Assembly: GCA_964560005.1 (NCBI GenBank)
Contig: CAZLKB010000003.1
Coordinates: 110,951 to 174,950, forward strand
Length of the DNA stretch: 64,000 bases
From: an uncultured Gammaproteobacteria bacterium
GTDB taxonomy: Bacteria > Patescibacteriota > Patescibacteriia > Patescibacteriales > GWC2-42-12
Direction of reading: 5' to 3'
Below, in pieces: positions 1,479-64,000 of the stretch. Made by a program: the position numbers and the translations under genes. How positions within the stretch are numbered: position 1 is the stretch's first letter; each line of letters begins with the position of its first letter. The notes under the pieces were generated by a model, which saw nothing but the letters and a program-made list of their open reading frames with translations, did not search any database and was not told the origin of the DNA.

Positions 1479-2777
1479 ATGTCAAATTTTATTATTAACG
1501 GCGGCAAAAAACTCCATGGCACGATTAAAACCAATTCGGCTAAAAATTCGGCCGTGGCTATTCTTTGCGCCCTGCCGATGATCAAAGGAAGAACCGTTCT
1601 GTTAGATATGCCCAGAATTGAAGAAGTCAACCGGATTATTGAAATATTAACCTCCATCGGCTTAAAGATTACCTGGCTGGCTAACCATAAACTTCAAATA
1701 ATCAATCCGGGTAAAATTTCTTTACATTCTATAAACCGCGAAGCTTATGAAAAAACCAGATCGGCGATTCTTCTACTTGGGTCCTTGTCATCAATCTTTA
1801 AAAAATTTATTCTGCCGAAAACCGGCGGATGCAAATTAGGCAAACGAACGGTTAATCCGCACTTCATTGCCTTGGCGCACCTAGGCATTTTCGTCAAAAA
1901 AATTAATAACAGCTTTTATATTAACAACCGCCGCGCCAAGAGCGCGCAATTTACCATGTATGAGTCCGGCGATACGGCCACCGAAAATGCCATCCTGGCC
2001 TCAATTTTGCTGCCAGGCAAGACGGAAATAAATTTAGCTTCAGCCAACTACATGGTGCAGGATTTATGCTATTTTTTAGTTAAAGCCGGCGCTAAAATCA
2101 GCGGTATCGGCACGACTAAACTTACAATCACTGGCGTAAAAAAACTTAAGCCGGTTATATACCCGATCATGCCTGACCCGATAGAATCAATGGCCTTTAT
2201 CTCTATCGCCATTACTACCGGCTCAAAAATGAAAATTACCAATTGCCCCATAGAATTCTTAAGCCTGGAACTGGAAAAACTCAGAGTGATGGGGCAAATC
2301 ATGAAAATAAGCAAACCGTATAAATCAGCCAACGGCCGATTTATTTTAATAAATCTAGAAATATCACCGTCTGAATTATATGCTCTTTCGGATAAGATTT
2401 ATGGACGGCCTTTCCCCGGCTTAAACATAGATAATTTACCCTTATTCCTGCCGATTTTAACTAAAGCTAAGGGCGCAACCTTAGTTCACGATTGGATTTA
2501 TGAAAATCGAGCCATCTACTATACTGAGTTGGAAAAGCTGGGAGCTAACATTATGCTTCATGACCCGCACCGCGTTACTGTCACCGGGCCGACTAAGTTA
2601 AAATCCGCGGAAATTATCTGCCCGCCGGCCTTAAGGCCGGCCATAAATCTGCTAATCTGCATGCTGGCGGCTGAAGGTAAATCAATTCTTCATAACTCAT
2701 ATTCAATTGACCGCGGTTACGAAAATATCTGCGAACGGCTTAATAAATTAGGCGCCGACATCAAACGGGTTGATTAA
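1479..2777 (+). CDS. murA: UDP-N-acetylglucosamine 1-carboxyvinyltransferase
   Basis: 432-aa ORF. The N-terminus IINGGKKLHGTIKTNSAKNSAVAILCA is typical of the MurA/EPSP-synthase fold. KTGGCKLGKRTVNPH aligns with the catalytic Cys loop of MurA. Confidence 0.85.
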   Translation: MSNFIINGGKKLHGTIKTNSAKNSAVAILCALPMIKGRTVLLDMPRIEEVNRIIEILTSIGLKITWLANHKLQIINPGKISLHSINREAYEKTRSAILLLGSLSSIFKKFILPKTGGCKLGKRTVNPHFIALAHLGIFVKKINNSFYINNRRAKSAQFTMYESGDTATENAILASILLPGKTEINLASANYMVQDLCYFLVKAGAKISGIGTTKLTITGVKKLKPVIYPIMPDPIESMAFISIAITTGSKMKITNCPIEFLSLELEKLRVMGQIMKISKPYKSANGRFILINLEISPSELYALSDKIYGRPFPGLNIDNLPLFLPILTKAKGATLVHDWIYENRAIYYTELEKLGANIMLHDPHRVTVTGPTKLKSAEIICPPALRPAINLLICMLAAEGKSILHNSYSIDRGYENICERLNKLGADIKRVD

Positions 2778-2903: not shown

Positions 2904-4235
2904 ATGACTCTAAAAGTCAGAAGAATACTTAGCCTGATATTTATAATTTTCTTTTTAACTATCGCCCCGGTTATTATACTCTACGCCGCCGGCTACAAGC
3001 TGAAAAGAAACGGTTTTGCCATAGAACGAACCGGCATATTTATTATTGAAAGCAGTCCTAAGGGCGCAAAAATATTGATTAACGGCAAGTCCCAAAAAAC
3101 GCTGACTAGCTCCTTGTTCAATCAAAATAATTTTGTAACTACACCGGCAAAAATAAAGAATCTTCTGCCCGGAGAATATGATCTTTCGCTGGAACTTGAT
3201 GGCTACTCAAGCTGGCAAAAAAAATTAAATATCAATCCCGGATCATCCACTTACGCAAAAAATATTTATTTATTTAAAAAAAATCTGCCGGTCCAAATAG
3301 CTTCTGCTGAAATTCAAGCTATTAGCTTTTCCCCGGATAAAAATCAGGCGGTAACTATATCCGCCAGCCAGCTTACTTTATATAATCTGAAAAACGAAAC
3401 GGCAAAATCCATTAACCAAAGTAATCTTAAAGGACAACACATAACCTGGCCGTTAGACGGCCGAATGCTGGTAGTTGATAATTATCTTTACGATACCTCC
3501 GCTTTTAACTCTATAATTGACTTAAACAAATTAACTCCGGGAAGTTTCAAGTATAAATGGAGTAATAATATTTTATTTTACCAAGATAAAACATCGGTTT
3601 ACCAGCTTAACGACGCGAATTTGCCCAAAAAAATAATTAATAATATAGATTTTAGCGATTATCTCATAAAGGACAAATTTTTATACTTAATTAATCAATC
3701 CAAGTCAGCCACCAGCCTAAAAACCATTAATCTGGCGTCAAGCAAACAAATTAAAGATATCAGCCTGCCGTCCGCCAATTATTCCTTTATCAACCCGGAG
3801 CAAACCCTAATTAATCTGCTTGATAATGACCATAAAATCCTCTACCTGATTAACCCGCTGGTTGATTATTACCCCTTGGTAGAGATTATTAATAATATTA
3901 AAACCACCGCTTGGTACGATAATAATAATTTGCTTTATACTAATGATTTTGAAATTTGGCTATACAGCTTAGAATCAAGGCAAAAAACTTTAATTACCAG
4001 AATTAGCGATTCCATTAACAGCGCCTTAATGCACCCGAATAAAAATTATATTATCTATTCCACCGATCAAACTATTAATACGATTGAACTGGATGAAAGA
4101 GAAAAAAGGAACACTACCGAATTGGTAAAATTTGACTCAATTAAAACCTTAGCCTTAAATACCTCGGGCGATATCCTTTATTTCTTCGGGCAAATCGGCA
4201 ACACGAAAGGATTATATAAATTATTAATCCAATAG
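2904..4235 (+). CDS. membrane-anchored PEGA-domain protein with beta-rich C-terminal region
   Basis: 443-aa ORF with an N-terminal TM helix. PEGA-like segment SSPKGAKILINGKSQ...PGEYDLSLELDGYSSWQKKLNINPGSS. Confidence 0.6.
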   Translation: MTLKVRRILSLIFIIFFLTIAPVIILYAAGYKLKRNGFAIERTGIFIIESSPKGAKILINGKSQKTLTSSLFNQNNFVTTPAKIKNLLPGEYDLSLELDGYSSWQKKLNINPGSSTYAKNIYLFKKNLPVQIASAEIQAISFSPDKNQAVTISASQLTLYNLKNETAKSINQSNLKGQHITWPLDGRMLVVDNYLYDTSAFNSIIDLNKLTPGSFKYKWSNNILFYQDKTSVYQLNDANLPKKIINNIDFSDYLIKDKFLYLINQSKSATSLKTINLASSKQIKDISLPSANYSFINPEQTLINLLDNDHKILYLINPLVDYYPLVEIINNIKTTAWYDNNNLLYTNDFEIWLYSLESRQKTLITRISDSINSALMHPNKNYIIYSTDQTINTIELDEREKRNTTELVKFDSIKTLALNTSGDILYFFGQIGNTKGLYKLLIQ

Positions 4236-27290: not shown

Positions 27291-27412
27291 ATTAAAGCCA
27301 ATTAAATGCTAATGAAAAACGAATTAAAGCGAATTTATTGATCTGGTTTATGAACTCATTCGTTTTAATTCGTTTTAATTCGCGGCTAATTCGTTTTTAT
27401 ATTTAACTAATC

Positions 27413-27975
27413 TCAGGGCAAGCTATAAGCCGGATTCTGTTCCGCCAATTGGCGGAGATGATCATCTATCTAGCCATGATGTTGCCATCATGGTCAAGCG
27501 AGCCACTTTTCGTTACACCGTAAAAACGGCGTAGTTTGCTCTTGCTCCAGGTAGGGTTTGCCGCGTCTCTCTGTCGCCAGAGGACGAATCCTGTAATTTA
27601 AGTTAATCGGATATCCTTTATAACCCAAATTTCAGAATACTTTTCACCTTTCACCGCTGCTGCGCAGCAGAAATCCCAATAGCCAAGAGCCAACATCCAA
27701 ACAAATTTCAAATTCAAATTGCCGAAATATAAAATTAATTTATATTTGAGTATAGAAATTTGGAATTTATTTGGACATTGGAAATTGAAAATTGGTCATT
27801 CCGCTGCGGAGCAGCGGTTAGTATTGTCTCTGTGGCACTTTCCCTGCTCCGCTATAAACGGAGCGGTGGATATTATCCATTACCATTTTCCAGCGCATAA
27901 TGCGCTTTTAGAGTCCGGACTTTCCTCGCCGATTAAAATAAAATTTTAACCGGTGTAATCATCCGCTTACCCTGA
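27413..27975 (-). ncRNA. rnpB: RNase P RNA (bacterial type A) with greatly expanded AT-rich P12 region
   Basis: On the minus strand, CR-I is GAGGAAAGTCCGGACTC (rc of 27911-27927), CR-V is ACAGAATCCGGCTTATAG (rc of 27423-27440) and P1 is agggtaagc/gcttgccct. GTGCCACAGAGACAA and GGTGAAAGGTGAAAAG resemble the E. coli M1 P10/11-J11/12 strings. Confidence 0.85.
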
Positions 27976-62108: not shown

Positions 62109-62250
62109 ATTTTTCGCTTTCCTTTTCACCCCGCCTTGGCGGGGCTTAGCCTCTACTCCGAATCATCCCGCCTTAGCGGAACAAGGAAATTAAAGGAGTA
62201 TGAGAGATTTATTAATTACTTAAAAATAGCAGTGTCTGCTATTAAAATAG

Positions 62251-62277
62251 ATTATAATATTATTTCTAATCTGTCAA
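62251..62277 (-). promoter_or_regulatory. near-consensus sigma70 promoter for rpsB-tsf
   Basis: On the minus strand: TTGACA (rc of 62272-62277), a 15-nt spacer, then TATAAT (rc of 62251-62256). The leader of about 135 nt contains the GC hairpins agcagacactgct and ccccgccaaggcgggg. Confidence 0.5.
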
Positions 62278-62377
62278 CCTCGCCTAAAGGCGGGCGGATC
62301 TTGCTAAAATTTATTTTTTATGTTAGTGTGAAATCTATTGAATATAAGTTTGAAAATTTCATTAAGGAAAATGTGGT

Positions 62378-62454
62378 TGAGGGGTGGCGAAGTGGCTAAA
62401 CGCAACTGCCTTCGGAGCAGTTATTCGCTGGTTCGAATCCAGCCCCCTCGGCCA
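62378..62454 (+). tRNA. tRNA-Arg (anticodon UCG), CCA encoded
   Basis: Acceptor TGAGGGG/CCCCTCG (U1-G72 wobble). D arm GCG-AAGTGGCTAAA-CGC. Anticodon arm ACTGC-CTTCGGA-GCAGT. T arm GCTGG-TTCGAAT-CCAGC. Discriminator G followed by CCA. Confidence 0.8.
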
Positions 62455-62474
62455 ATCGATCTTTATAGATTTTA

Positions 62475-62826
62475 CGGCGGAGAATGTGGCCGCCCTCCTT
62501 TCGTGCATTGGAGAGGTGCGGTAGTCTCGGTCACGTTCTCCGCCGCCAATTTGGGTGCGCGCGTAGCTCAAAAGTAGAGCGTCGCCCTAACCCGGCGATA
62601 ATATGCCTGGTGCAACTCCGGCCGTGCGCACCATTCCCTTACGGCGGAAAGTTCGTAAAACTGTCCCTTTCTCTTCATAGGTGTTTTGAGACAGACGCAT
62701 TTTCCGCCGCCAATTTGGCCAAGAGGTTGCTCGATGATACGAGCGTTCAGTATCGCGGGCGGTTCCCAGCCGTCATGCAATATATTTAATGAATACGCGC
62801 AGGTTCAATTCCTGCCCTCTTGGCCG
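62475..62826 (+). ncRNA. array of four GC-rich acceptor-stem/tRNA-like modules (unassigned)
   Basis: Module a (62475-62548) is a 10-bp stem plus CCA. Module b (62557-62633) is a near-cloverleaf ending in ACCA. Module c (62642-62712) is a 9-bp stem plus CCA. Module d (62717-62826) is a 10-bp stem with D-like, anticodon-like (CCC) and canonical T arms. There is no credible ORF. Strand is inferred from T-loop polarity and the CCA ends. Confidence 0.55.
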
Positions 62827-62870
62827 ATAATTTTTGAAGTTTTAAAAAACTTCAACCCTAAAACAACTTT

Positions 62871-63074
62871 GGCGAGAGTGATTTGCAGACGCATTGTTTT
62901 TTATGCAACGGTGAAATTCCGTTGACGTGTCGCCCGCCGTCCCAAGCATACCTGCTCGGAATGAGAAGGACAACAGAGTCCGGAGCTAATGTAGGACAGC
63001 TCACCTGGCGCTAAGCGCTAGGGACAACCTGCTCGGGCACCATAAATAACAAGGAGCGCTGTTTCACTCTCGCC
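62871..63074 (+). ncRNA. unassigned structured RNA, about 204 nt, closed by an 11-bp helix
   Basis: ggcgagagtga (62871-62881) pairs perfectly with tcactctcgcc (63064-63074). Four internal hairpins, GC-rich, ORF-free. The strand is uncertain. Confidence 0.45.
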
Positions 63075-63158
63075 TCCTTAATATAATTTTCAAACTATAA
63101 TAATTCATCGCGAATTTATTCGTTAAATTCGTTTTAAATTCGTGTATTATTCGTTTTT

Positions 63159-63449
63159 ATGAAAAAAGACATCCACCCGAAATATTATCCGGAAGCCAAA
63201 GTAGTTTGCGCTTGCGGCAATGCTTTTACCACCGGCTCAACCCTAAAAGAGCTTAAGGTGGAAATCTGCTCGGCCTGCCATCCCTTCTATACCGGCAAAC
63301 AAAAGCTGATTGACAGCGCCCGCCGCGTAGAAAAATTCCAGGCTAAAATTGAAGCTAAAACCAAGAGCAAGCCCAAGCATAAGAGCAAGAAGGCCAAGCG
63401 CGTGGCCAAGACTAAGGCCAAGGCAGATAGAAAAACCGAAAAAAAGTAA
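63159..63449 (+). CDS. rpmE: 50S ribosomal protein L31 (Cys-containing type) with lysine-rich C-terminal tail
   Basis: [28 protein letters not shown] ... [13 protein letters not shown]. Confidence 0.95.
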
Positions 63450-63658: not shown

Positions 63659-64000
63659 ATGTATTCAAATATTAAACAAAAATTTAAAGACTTGGAAAGC
63701 CAGTTATCAGACCAGGCGATTATTTCCGACTTAAAAAAATTGAAAGAAATTTCCAAACAGCACAGTGACCTTAAAACCGTGGTTGAACTGATTTTAGAAT
63801 TGGAAAAAAAACAAACTCAACTGGCTCAGAGCGAAGAGATGATCAGGCAAGAATCCGATCAAGAATTATTGAAAATCGCCAAGGAAGAAACCACTGAATT
63901 AAAAAAACAAGTTGAAAAATTAACTAACGAGATCGAGACCGAACTCCACCCGGCCGACCCCAACGATAAAAAAAATATAATCATGGAAATCAGAGCCGGC
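63659..64000 (+). CDS. prfA: peptide chain release factor 1, N-terminal part (runs off window)
   Basis: Own translation from the ATG at 63659: MYSNIKQKFKDLESQLSDQAIISDLKKLKEISKQHSDLKTVVE ... HPADPNDKKNIIMEIRAG, which matches the RF1 pattern (LLPKDPNDxKNvilEIRAG). rpmE-prfA adjacency is common. Confidence 0.85.
   Translation, partial: MYSNIKQKFKDLESQLSDQAIISDLKKLKEISKQHSDLKTVVELILELEKKQTQLAQSEEMIRQESDQELLKIAKEETTELKKQVEKLTNEIETELHPADPNDKKNIIMEIRAG

Follow-up and report, generated by a model that had tools for sequence, protein, structure and literature searches.

In Escherichia coli, tRNA genes are co-transcribed ahead of translation-factor genes, as in thrU-tyrU-glyT-thrT-tufB and metY-nusA-infB, and the rRNA operons carry structured transcribed spacers together with long-range stems around the 16S and 23S rRNA, which are the substrates of RNase III. 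Leaders of rpmE, the gene of ribosomal protein L31, are represented by the L31 motifs of Rfam and by the E. coli rpmE 5' UTR and rpmE autoregulation, and palindromic DNA of comparable appearance is known from MITE/REP-like elements and from the GC clusters of AT-rich organelle genomes. The locus analysed here has features in common with each of these. As in the E. coli tRNA operons, tRNAs are placed on one strand between a putative promoter and a translation-related gene without a terminator, an arrangement in which excision from the leader is needed; unlike in those operons, the tRNAs are interleaved with long-hairpin modules and degenerate tRNA-like RNAs, and the block lies within a covarying 20-bp stem, varies in content from genome to genome and is absent from most of them. 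Like the processing stems of the rRNA operons, this stem is a helix made of the sequences flanking a stable-RNA block, and spacer-like parts keep their pairing despite sequence drift, but it encloses small RNAs within an mRNA leader, where it is a candidate cleavage substrate.

The window, that is the whole 64,000-nt stretch of DNA analysed, belongs to a Falkowbacteria-like Patescibacterium; its RpsB shares 85-88% identity with proteins from MAGs of Falkowbacteria and other Patescibacteria. An identical sequence is present in run SRR12133404, and related arrays are present in JGI Ga0172379, Ga0172369 and Ga0076133 as well as in GCA_028707005.1 and GCA_001778015.1. The genes tsf and rpsB lie on the minus strand, and rpmE (63159-63449, taken from the ORF list; the identical gene in the related locus L001 matches Pfam Ribosomal_L31) and prfA (downstream, at 63660) lie on the plus strand. 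Between the putative rpmE promoter and rpmE stands an array of approx. 745 nt, composed of two tRNAs, two hairpin modules, a tRNA-like RNA, a short AT hairpin and a 204-nt element (62871-63074, plus strand), the last being recognised by its fold, its homologues and the covariation of its closing helix, P1. The first-pass annotation had picked out the 204-nt element and missed this context, in which it is the last and largest module of the array.

Upstream of the array a promoter-like element can be read at 62301-62329 on the plus strand, with the -35 sequence TTGCTA (62301-62306), a 17-nt spacer, and TGT followed by TAGTGT (62321-62329). The motif TTGC[CT]AAAA..TATGTTAAT is common to array-bearing and array-less relatives and precedes the arrays both in the window and in the loci L217, L222, L211/L292, L216, L275, L221/L082 and L300. 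In the array-less relatives the motif, TTGCCAAAA-N-TATGTTAAT, is situated about 55 nt before the rpmE ATG and is followed by a small hairpin and a U-run. The consensus promoter scan did not flag 62301-62329, so the assignment rests on this conservation, from which we infer that the site is the clade's conserved rpmE promoter. The array modules and the tRNAs all lie downstream of it on the same (plus) strand, and no terminator-like site was found on that strand between 62306 and 63159.

The array begins with a tRNA-Arg having the anticodon UCG and an encoded CCA (62378-62454, plus strand; 58.7 bits with the Rfam tRNA model, also called by ARAGORN). It is followed by a closed hairpin module, CGGCGGAGAA...TTCTCCGCCG and then CCA (62475-62545, plus strand; the fold of 62455-62556 reaches -48.8 kcal/mol, z = -5.0), and by a tRNA-Val with the anticodon AAC and an encoded CCA (62557-62633, plus strand; 44.6 bits with Rfam tRNA, called by ARAGORN); apart from Arg-ACG, bacterial tRNAs with A at position 34 are, to our knowledge, unusual. 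The second closed hairpin module, CGGCGGAAA...TTTCCGCCG and then CCA (62642-62709, plus strand; -25.6 kcal/mol and z = -3.8 for the fold of 62634-62715), has termini paralogous to those of the first one. The tRNA-like RNA at 62717-62825 (plus strand; -49.1 kcal/mol, z = -5.1) possesses a 10-bp acceptor stem, a D arm and a T arm, and its anticodon arm is replaced by an arm of about 17 bp with the loop UUCCCAG; it reached only 27 bits with Rfam tRNA-Sec and was not called by ARAGORN. The counterpart of this RNA in L300 (approx. 1930-2035, minus strand) has the loop UUCCUAG and shows compensatory changes in three stems, namely those of the acceptor, the T arm and the long arm. Next comes an AT-rich hairpin, ttgaagtttt/aaaacttcaa (62834-62855, plus strand), which was read from the sequence and also forms when the array is folded as a whole. 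The modules are joined by A/U-rich linkers, and each is closed by its own strong helix.

The entire array is enclosed by a 20-bp long-range stem, in which TTTGAAAATTTCATTAAGGA (62349-62368, plus strand) pairs with TCCTTAATATAATTTTCAAA (63075-63094, plus strand). When eight such stems from seven loci were compared, 92.5% of the cells were paired and 10 of the 20 pairs were changed on both sides; none of 500 shuffles reached these values, and slid controls were 31-54% paired. The tail is homologous across the arrays and comes directly after the last module in every one of them. The locus L227 resembles an empty site, which suggests that the array may have grown in the apex of a leader hairpin. 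In L216 (1120-1400, minus strand) two tandem stem-enclosed blocks are found, each with its own covarying leader/tail helix.

Some further features of the intergenic region are recorded here. Four copies of ATTCGT, spaced by about 10-11 nt, lie downstream of the array tail and before the rpmE ATG (approx. 63112-63155); the repeat is also present in L300, L221, L216, L295, L219 and L234, some array-less relatives included, and could serve as a site of protein binding or of DNA bending. The rpsB leader (62130-62290, minus strand) contains the conserved GCCTCTACTCC...ACAAGGAAA..GAGTATGAGAGATT interrupted by GC-rich hairpins, which vary in sequence and length among the relatives (also in L221, L216, L275 and L211). 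Small ORFs are situated between rpsB and the rpmE promoter in L221/L082 (approx. 2204-2455), L217 (approx. 2000-2400) and L275 (approx. 1250-1550), and one of these was called as an 83-aa gene in L082.

The 204-nt element is closed by a perfect 11-bp helix between ggcgagagtga (62871-62881) and tcactctcgcc (63064-63074), just as annotated at first pass, and the proposed inward continuation of the helix was also recovered (62885-62888 with 63059-63062, 62890-62892 with 63056-63058, 62894-62898 with 63048-63052 and 62900-62905 with 63041-63046; the probability of each pair is at least 0.92). P1 as a whole extends over 62871-62905 and 63041-63074, and in both the MFE and the centroid structures this closing helix of about 30 bp stands under a multibranch of four to five hairpins. 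Four inner hairpins had been proposed as well, and two of them are present in the MFE structure: caacgg-TGAAATT-ccgttg at 62906-62924 (hairpin A) and the hairpin at 63004-63022 (hairpin C), which forms an 8-bp stem with a UAA triloop. The other two did not survive, since the hairpin of cctgctc and gagaagg is outside the MFE structure and carries a penalty of 5.4 kcal/mol when imposed, and the partner of GUCC (62978-62981) is the GGAC at 62968-62971 and not the one at 62994-62997. The remaining, lineage-specific centre of the module (approx. 62925-63003 and 63023-63040) contains the two copies of the 10-mer acctgctcgg (62950-62959 and 63027-63036); both these and the two copies of ggacaac (62968 and 63022) are where they had been reported. 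A repeated 10-mer appeared in 53 of 5000 shuffles (about 1%), thus the duplication is unlikely to have arisen by chance.

The plus strand of the element folds with an MFE of -84.7 kcal/mol, compared with -59.9 +/- 4.6 in 200 dinucleotide shuffles, none of which was as good (z = -5.3). Since the minus strand folds equally well (MFE -85.0, z = -4.9), the strand of the 204-nt element is not told by the fold alone. The segment is GC-rich as described (about 55% against 40.6% for the window), its end is followed after 84 nt by the ATG of rpmE (63159), practically the estimated distance of 85 nt, and it holds only short overlapping ORFs of 43-79 aa. These ORFs gave no match in the Pfam search, and a coding reading of the element was rejected on this basis.

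In order to place the element among known RNAs, the whole window was searched with Rfam 15 at gathering score, and only RNase P and eight tRNAs were recognised. The search of 62300-63200 with all 4227 families at E <= 10 and permissive filters gave nothing in 62871-63074, and in six array loci at E <= 1 only tRNAs were recognised. The description of a structured, family-less RNA-like element was therefore borne out: the fold beats the shuffles, the closing helix is kept by compensatory change and Rfam 15 is empty. The 204-nt element is a genuine structured element outside the known families. Two other structured stretches of the window are mentioned here in their own right. The RNase P RNA match (27410-27974, minus strand) is 565 nt long for a model of 367 positions, with an AT-rich insertion of about 170 nt and smaller ones. 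The plus strand ORFs 1479-2777 and 2904-4235 are separated by a 126-nt GC-rich (0.58) element (2778-2903) that takes up the whole space between them; in it UGUCAUU/AAUGACA closes four hairpins, the MFE is -66 kcal/mol (z = -7.5), and no Rfam match was obtained.

The identities suggested earlier for the 204-nt element were less successful. The 6S covariance models of Rfam gave no match at gathering score or, in 62300-63200, at E <= 10; the L31 leader models gave none at E <= 10 in the same interval, and no riboswitch family matched at E <= 10 within 62871-63074. Like 6S RNA, the element is about 200 nt long with its 5' and 3' ends paired in a long helix; unlike 6S RNA, it has a multibranched apex in place of the large central bubble, and its presence is patchy: it was found in three other arrays and is absent from about 40 close relatives at the locus and from 474 kb of other rpmE loci. 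As for a riboswitch, the centre of the element cannot be aligned among the homologues, so that no conserved ligand core is seen, no aptamer was matched, and neither a terminator nor the ribosome-binding site is involved. The rpsB-rpmE gaps of the relatives are AT-rich and devoid of the element, which is not what is seen with a leader conserved upstream of rpmE. Thus the assignment of the 204-nt element as a 6S RNA, a riboswitch or an L31 leader has no support. Three further candidates were tried and rejected. A group I intron (an idea taken from PMC13011429) was discarded because no Rfam intron matched and the ends pair mutually and not with flanking tRNA exons; a box C/D or TIGR-like guide (from PMC12045711), because the CUG beside the 3' terminal stem pairs with CAG and there is no tandem G-A kink-turn; and an integron attC site, because the termini lack the AAC/GTT core. 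With blastn the 745-nt insert showed similarity to phage genomes only in its tRNA-Arg, and exact-pattern scans of viral contigs gave 2 matches for GGTGAAATTCCGTTGAC and more than 120 for CCGCCGCCAATTTGG, numbers which, judged from the counts alone, we take as roughly chance level.

Homologues of the 204-nt module were found in L217 (1158-1292), L222 (1507-1629) and L211 (1860-1954), all on the minus strand; together with L292, which is the same as L211, there are four homologues and effectively three lineages besides the window. By blastn, positions 1222-1292 of L217 match the 204-nt element with 74% identity over 73 nt, and the homologues in L222 and L211 were recognised by eye and by a covariance model. 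All of them end alike (GGCRRGAG... and ...CUCYYGCC), and the irregular closing helix of about 30 bp with its U-rich internal loop has the same internal loops in the four homologues. In P1 93.5% of the cells are paired and 11 of the 29 pairs are changed on both sides (12 by our separate count), values which are biased towards the structure because the alignment was fitted to it by hand; MAFFT misaligned the inner 3' strand of the full-length homologues, and an N-padded hand alignment was used for this reason. None of 500 shuffles matched the observed values, and the slid controls were 37-55% paired. Since the four-fold degenerate sites of rpsB are only 62-68% identical between the window and the loci of the module homologues, the pairing of P1 was held while the sequence drifted. 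The covariance model of the P1 helix, R1, was built from four sequences including the window copy; it matches L217, L211, L292 and L222 with E values of 2e-7 to 3e-5 (33-41 bits). On the window copy the match is partial (15.9 bits), the model being unable to bridge the 135-nt apex. Paralogous modules were detected in L222 (1744-1826; E = 0.002, 25.9 bits) and L211 (1962-2041; E = 0.12, 18.9 bits), and there was no match in the 474 kb of other rpmE loci.

Conservation inside P1 is partial. Hairpins A and C are kept in two of the three homologue arrays, L217 and L222. Hairpin A reads CAACGG/CCGUUG in L217 and AGCGG/CCGCU in L222, with one change on both sides, and its loop is CAUUC in the former and CAACAAC in the latter; hairpin C is CUCGCGC-GCN-GCGCGRAG in both, against CCUGGCGC-UAA-GCGCUAGG in the window, one pair again being changed on both sides. 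Elsewhere the centre cannot be aligned, and the duplicated 10-mer and its proposed partner are confined to the window. The number of apex hairpins is one in L211, three in L217 and L222 and five or more in the window, the lengths of the family members being 95, 123, 135 and 204 nt.

Most close relatives have no array, and their rpsB-rpmE gap is 250-360 nt; among close and distant relatives together the gap is 200-500 nt and AT-rich, or it is filled by unrelated protein genes. An rpmE-based scan of species-representative genomes (80 loci) found neither tRNAs next to rpmE nor any homologue of the element at the sequence level. Array blocks at the same site were found in L217, L222, L211 (= L292), L216, L275, L221 (= L082) and L300, which we count as six or seven distinct arrays besides that of the window. 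Each block is made up of tRNAs, degenerate tRNA-likes and closed non-tRNA modules of 75-200 nt; the tRNA identities and the module content differ from array to array, and the final module is always a long hairpin of the same build. The four-fold sites of rpsB in the window are 62-75% identical to those of the array-bearing loci and 40-48% identical to those of the array-less L087 and L085, while the array-less L293 and the array-bearing L211 have RpsB proteins of 93.6% identity. Comparison of these sequences indicates that the arrays are both inherited and lost. The array most like that of the window, in L300, holds an 85-nt long hairpin in the place of the 204-nt module. Since this module is missing in L300 and the whole array is missing in close relatives, it is dispensable. 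The orthologous tRNAs at the same position of these two arrays have different anticodons, Arg-UCG in the window (62378-62454) and Gln-UUG in L300 (2257-2333, minus strand), and are about 85-90% identical as read from the pairwise alignment, the body being otherwise conserved.

In order to decide between the RNA and the DNA level, 25 non-tRNA modules were pooled. On the strand of the tRNAs (plus) they contain 39 internal G-U pairs and 7 A-C mismatches, on the minus strand 21 and 12, respectively; the summed folding energy is -1035 kcal/mol on the plus and -1000 kcal/mol on the minus strand. The excess of G-U over A-C on the tRNA strand favours the module set as a whole being RNA on the plus strand, and the 204-nt element alone gives no preference.

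On balance, and with moderate confidence, we take the 204-nt element to be the last and largest module of a polycistronic RNA-gene array in the 5' leader of rpmE-prfA, co-transcribed and processed with the rest and carrying an apex expanded in this lineage. Transcription of the array would start at the rpmE promoter, the tRNA-processing enzymes would excise it and cut it up, with a double-strand-specific RNase probably cutting at the long helices as well, and the 204-nt module would persist as a stable small RNA. The selected property may be the stable, self-contained folding itself, which would insulate the neighbouring tRNAs and provide nuclease-resistant ends; such a module would be expected neither to sense a ligand nor to pair with targets in trans. 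The duplicated 10-mer would then be the trace of a local duplication that took place as the apex grew.

A different explanation places the phenomenon at the level of the DNA: a permissive, AT-rich leader would have accumulated GC-rich palindromes, inserted either as small selfish mobile elements or as inverted repeats generated by template switching during replication, and any RNA structure would be incidental and without function. Like MITE/REP elements and GC clusters, the 204-nt element is GC-rich relative to the window, intergenic, variable between close relatives and bounded by terminal inverted repeats (11 bp perfect, about 30 bp imperfect). Unlike them, it is single-copy in the DNA examined, no further copy of it or of its termini having turned up in the 64-kb window or, away from the rpmE leader, in approx. 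0.9 Mb of related loci; its flanks (...caacttt and tccttaa...) show no direct repeat, so that no target-site duplication is seen; and its internal loops are conserved and its compensatory changes lie at an orthologous site. Arrays and single modules come and go among very close relatives, every array differs in module content, the small GC hairpins of the rpsB leader are likewise swapped between relatives, and the closed multi-hairpin element at 2778-2903 sits in an unrelated gap, all of which agrees with a DNA-level origin, as does the equal folding of the two strands of the 204-nt element. Template switching in replication is documented to create and maintain hairpins, and it can mimic covariation without selection on RNA (PMC8794818). 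However, bona fide tRNAs alternate with the modules on one strand, the pooled modules have more G-U than A-C on that strand, and the imperfections of the helix, with the same internal loops in four homologues, are unexpected for freshly copied inverted repeats. For these reasons we regard the DNA-level explanation as unlikely, while still giving it weight.

If the modules are RNA genes, the stem-enclosed block could be more than a set of passive spacers. It might represent a hypervariable, previously undescribed RNA-gene island of the Patescibacteria, with cassette-like tRNAs that vary, and even change their anticodon, from one close relative to another. Together with the tRNA-like RNAs and long-hairpin modules these would be maintained for the sake of diversity, perhaps to replace RNAs hit by phage or host toxins that target tRNA or other RNA, or to act as decoys for such toxins, with the 204-nt RNA as an effector; we consider this extension quite unlikely.

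A regulatory leader acting in cis on rpmE-prfA would either bind L31 or another factor, or toggle between the copies of ACCUGCUCGG/GGACAAC, and thereby control read-through or the translation of rpmE. Its location within the 5' leader of rpmE, not separated from the gene by a terminator, fits such a role, the array takes the place of the small hairpin-plus-U-run leader of the array-less relatives, and structured L31 leaders are known in other phyla. The element resembles these in being a structured RNA upstream of rpmE, but it matches no L31 leader model of Rfam, is not conserved together with rpmE, most close relatives having the same rpmE promoter without it, and its end lies so far from the start codon that the start region is not contacted. 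The switch that had been proposed on the basis of the competing 10-mer copies is not upheld. The two alternative pairings of GAGAAGG are near-isoenergetic (-79.3 and -79.8 kcal/mol), but both are about 5 kcal/mol worse than the MFE, and the duplicated segments and their partner are missing from every homologue. Control in cis by this element thus appears decidedly improbable. A divergent 6S RNA, an SRP RNA or an FMN/cobalamin-type riboswitch, to which the size of about 200 nt, the closed terminal helix and the T-loop-like hairpin GGUGAAAUUCC (presumably similar to a motif of the FMN and cobalamin aptamers) might point, is scarcely credible, as none of the 4227 Rfam families matches at E <= 10 even under lax filtering, L217 and L222 have other sequences in the loop of that hairpin, there is no central bubble, and the element is absent from most relatives.

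Should the modules turn out to be inert palindromic insertions, they would call for caution in the structure-based discovery of non-coding RNAs in AT-rich genomes. The orthologous tRNAs with different anticodons are of interest for the study of decoding in Patescibacteria. If the arrays are expressed, they would add a structured RNA family absent from Rfam and would offer a tractable case of the growth of structured RNA by accretion at hairpin apices, through the steps of 95, 123, 135 and 204 nt. It would also mean that genome-reduced Patescibacteria keep a block of stable RNAs with fast turnover in the leader of an essential translation operon.
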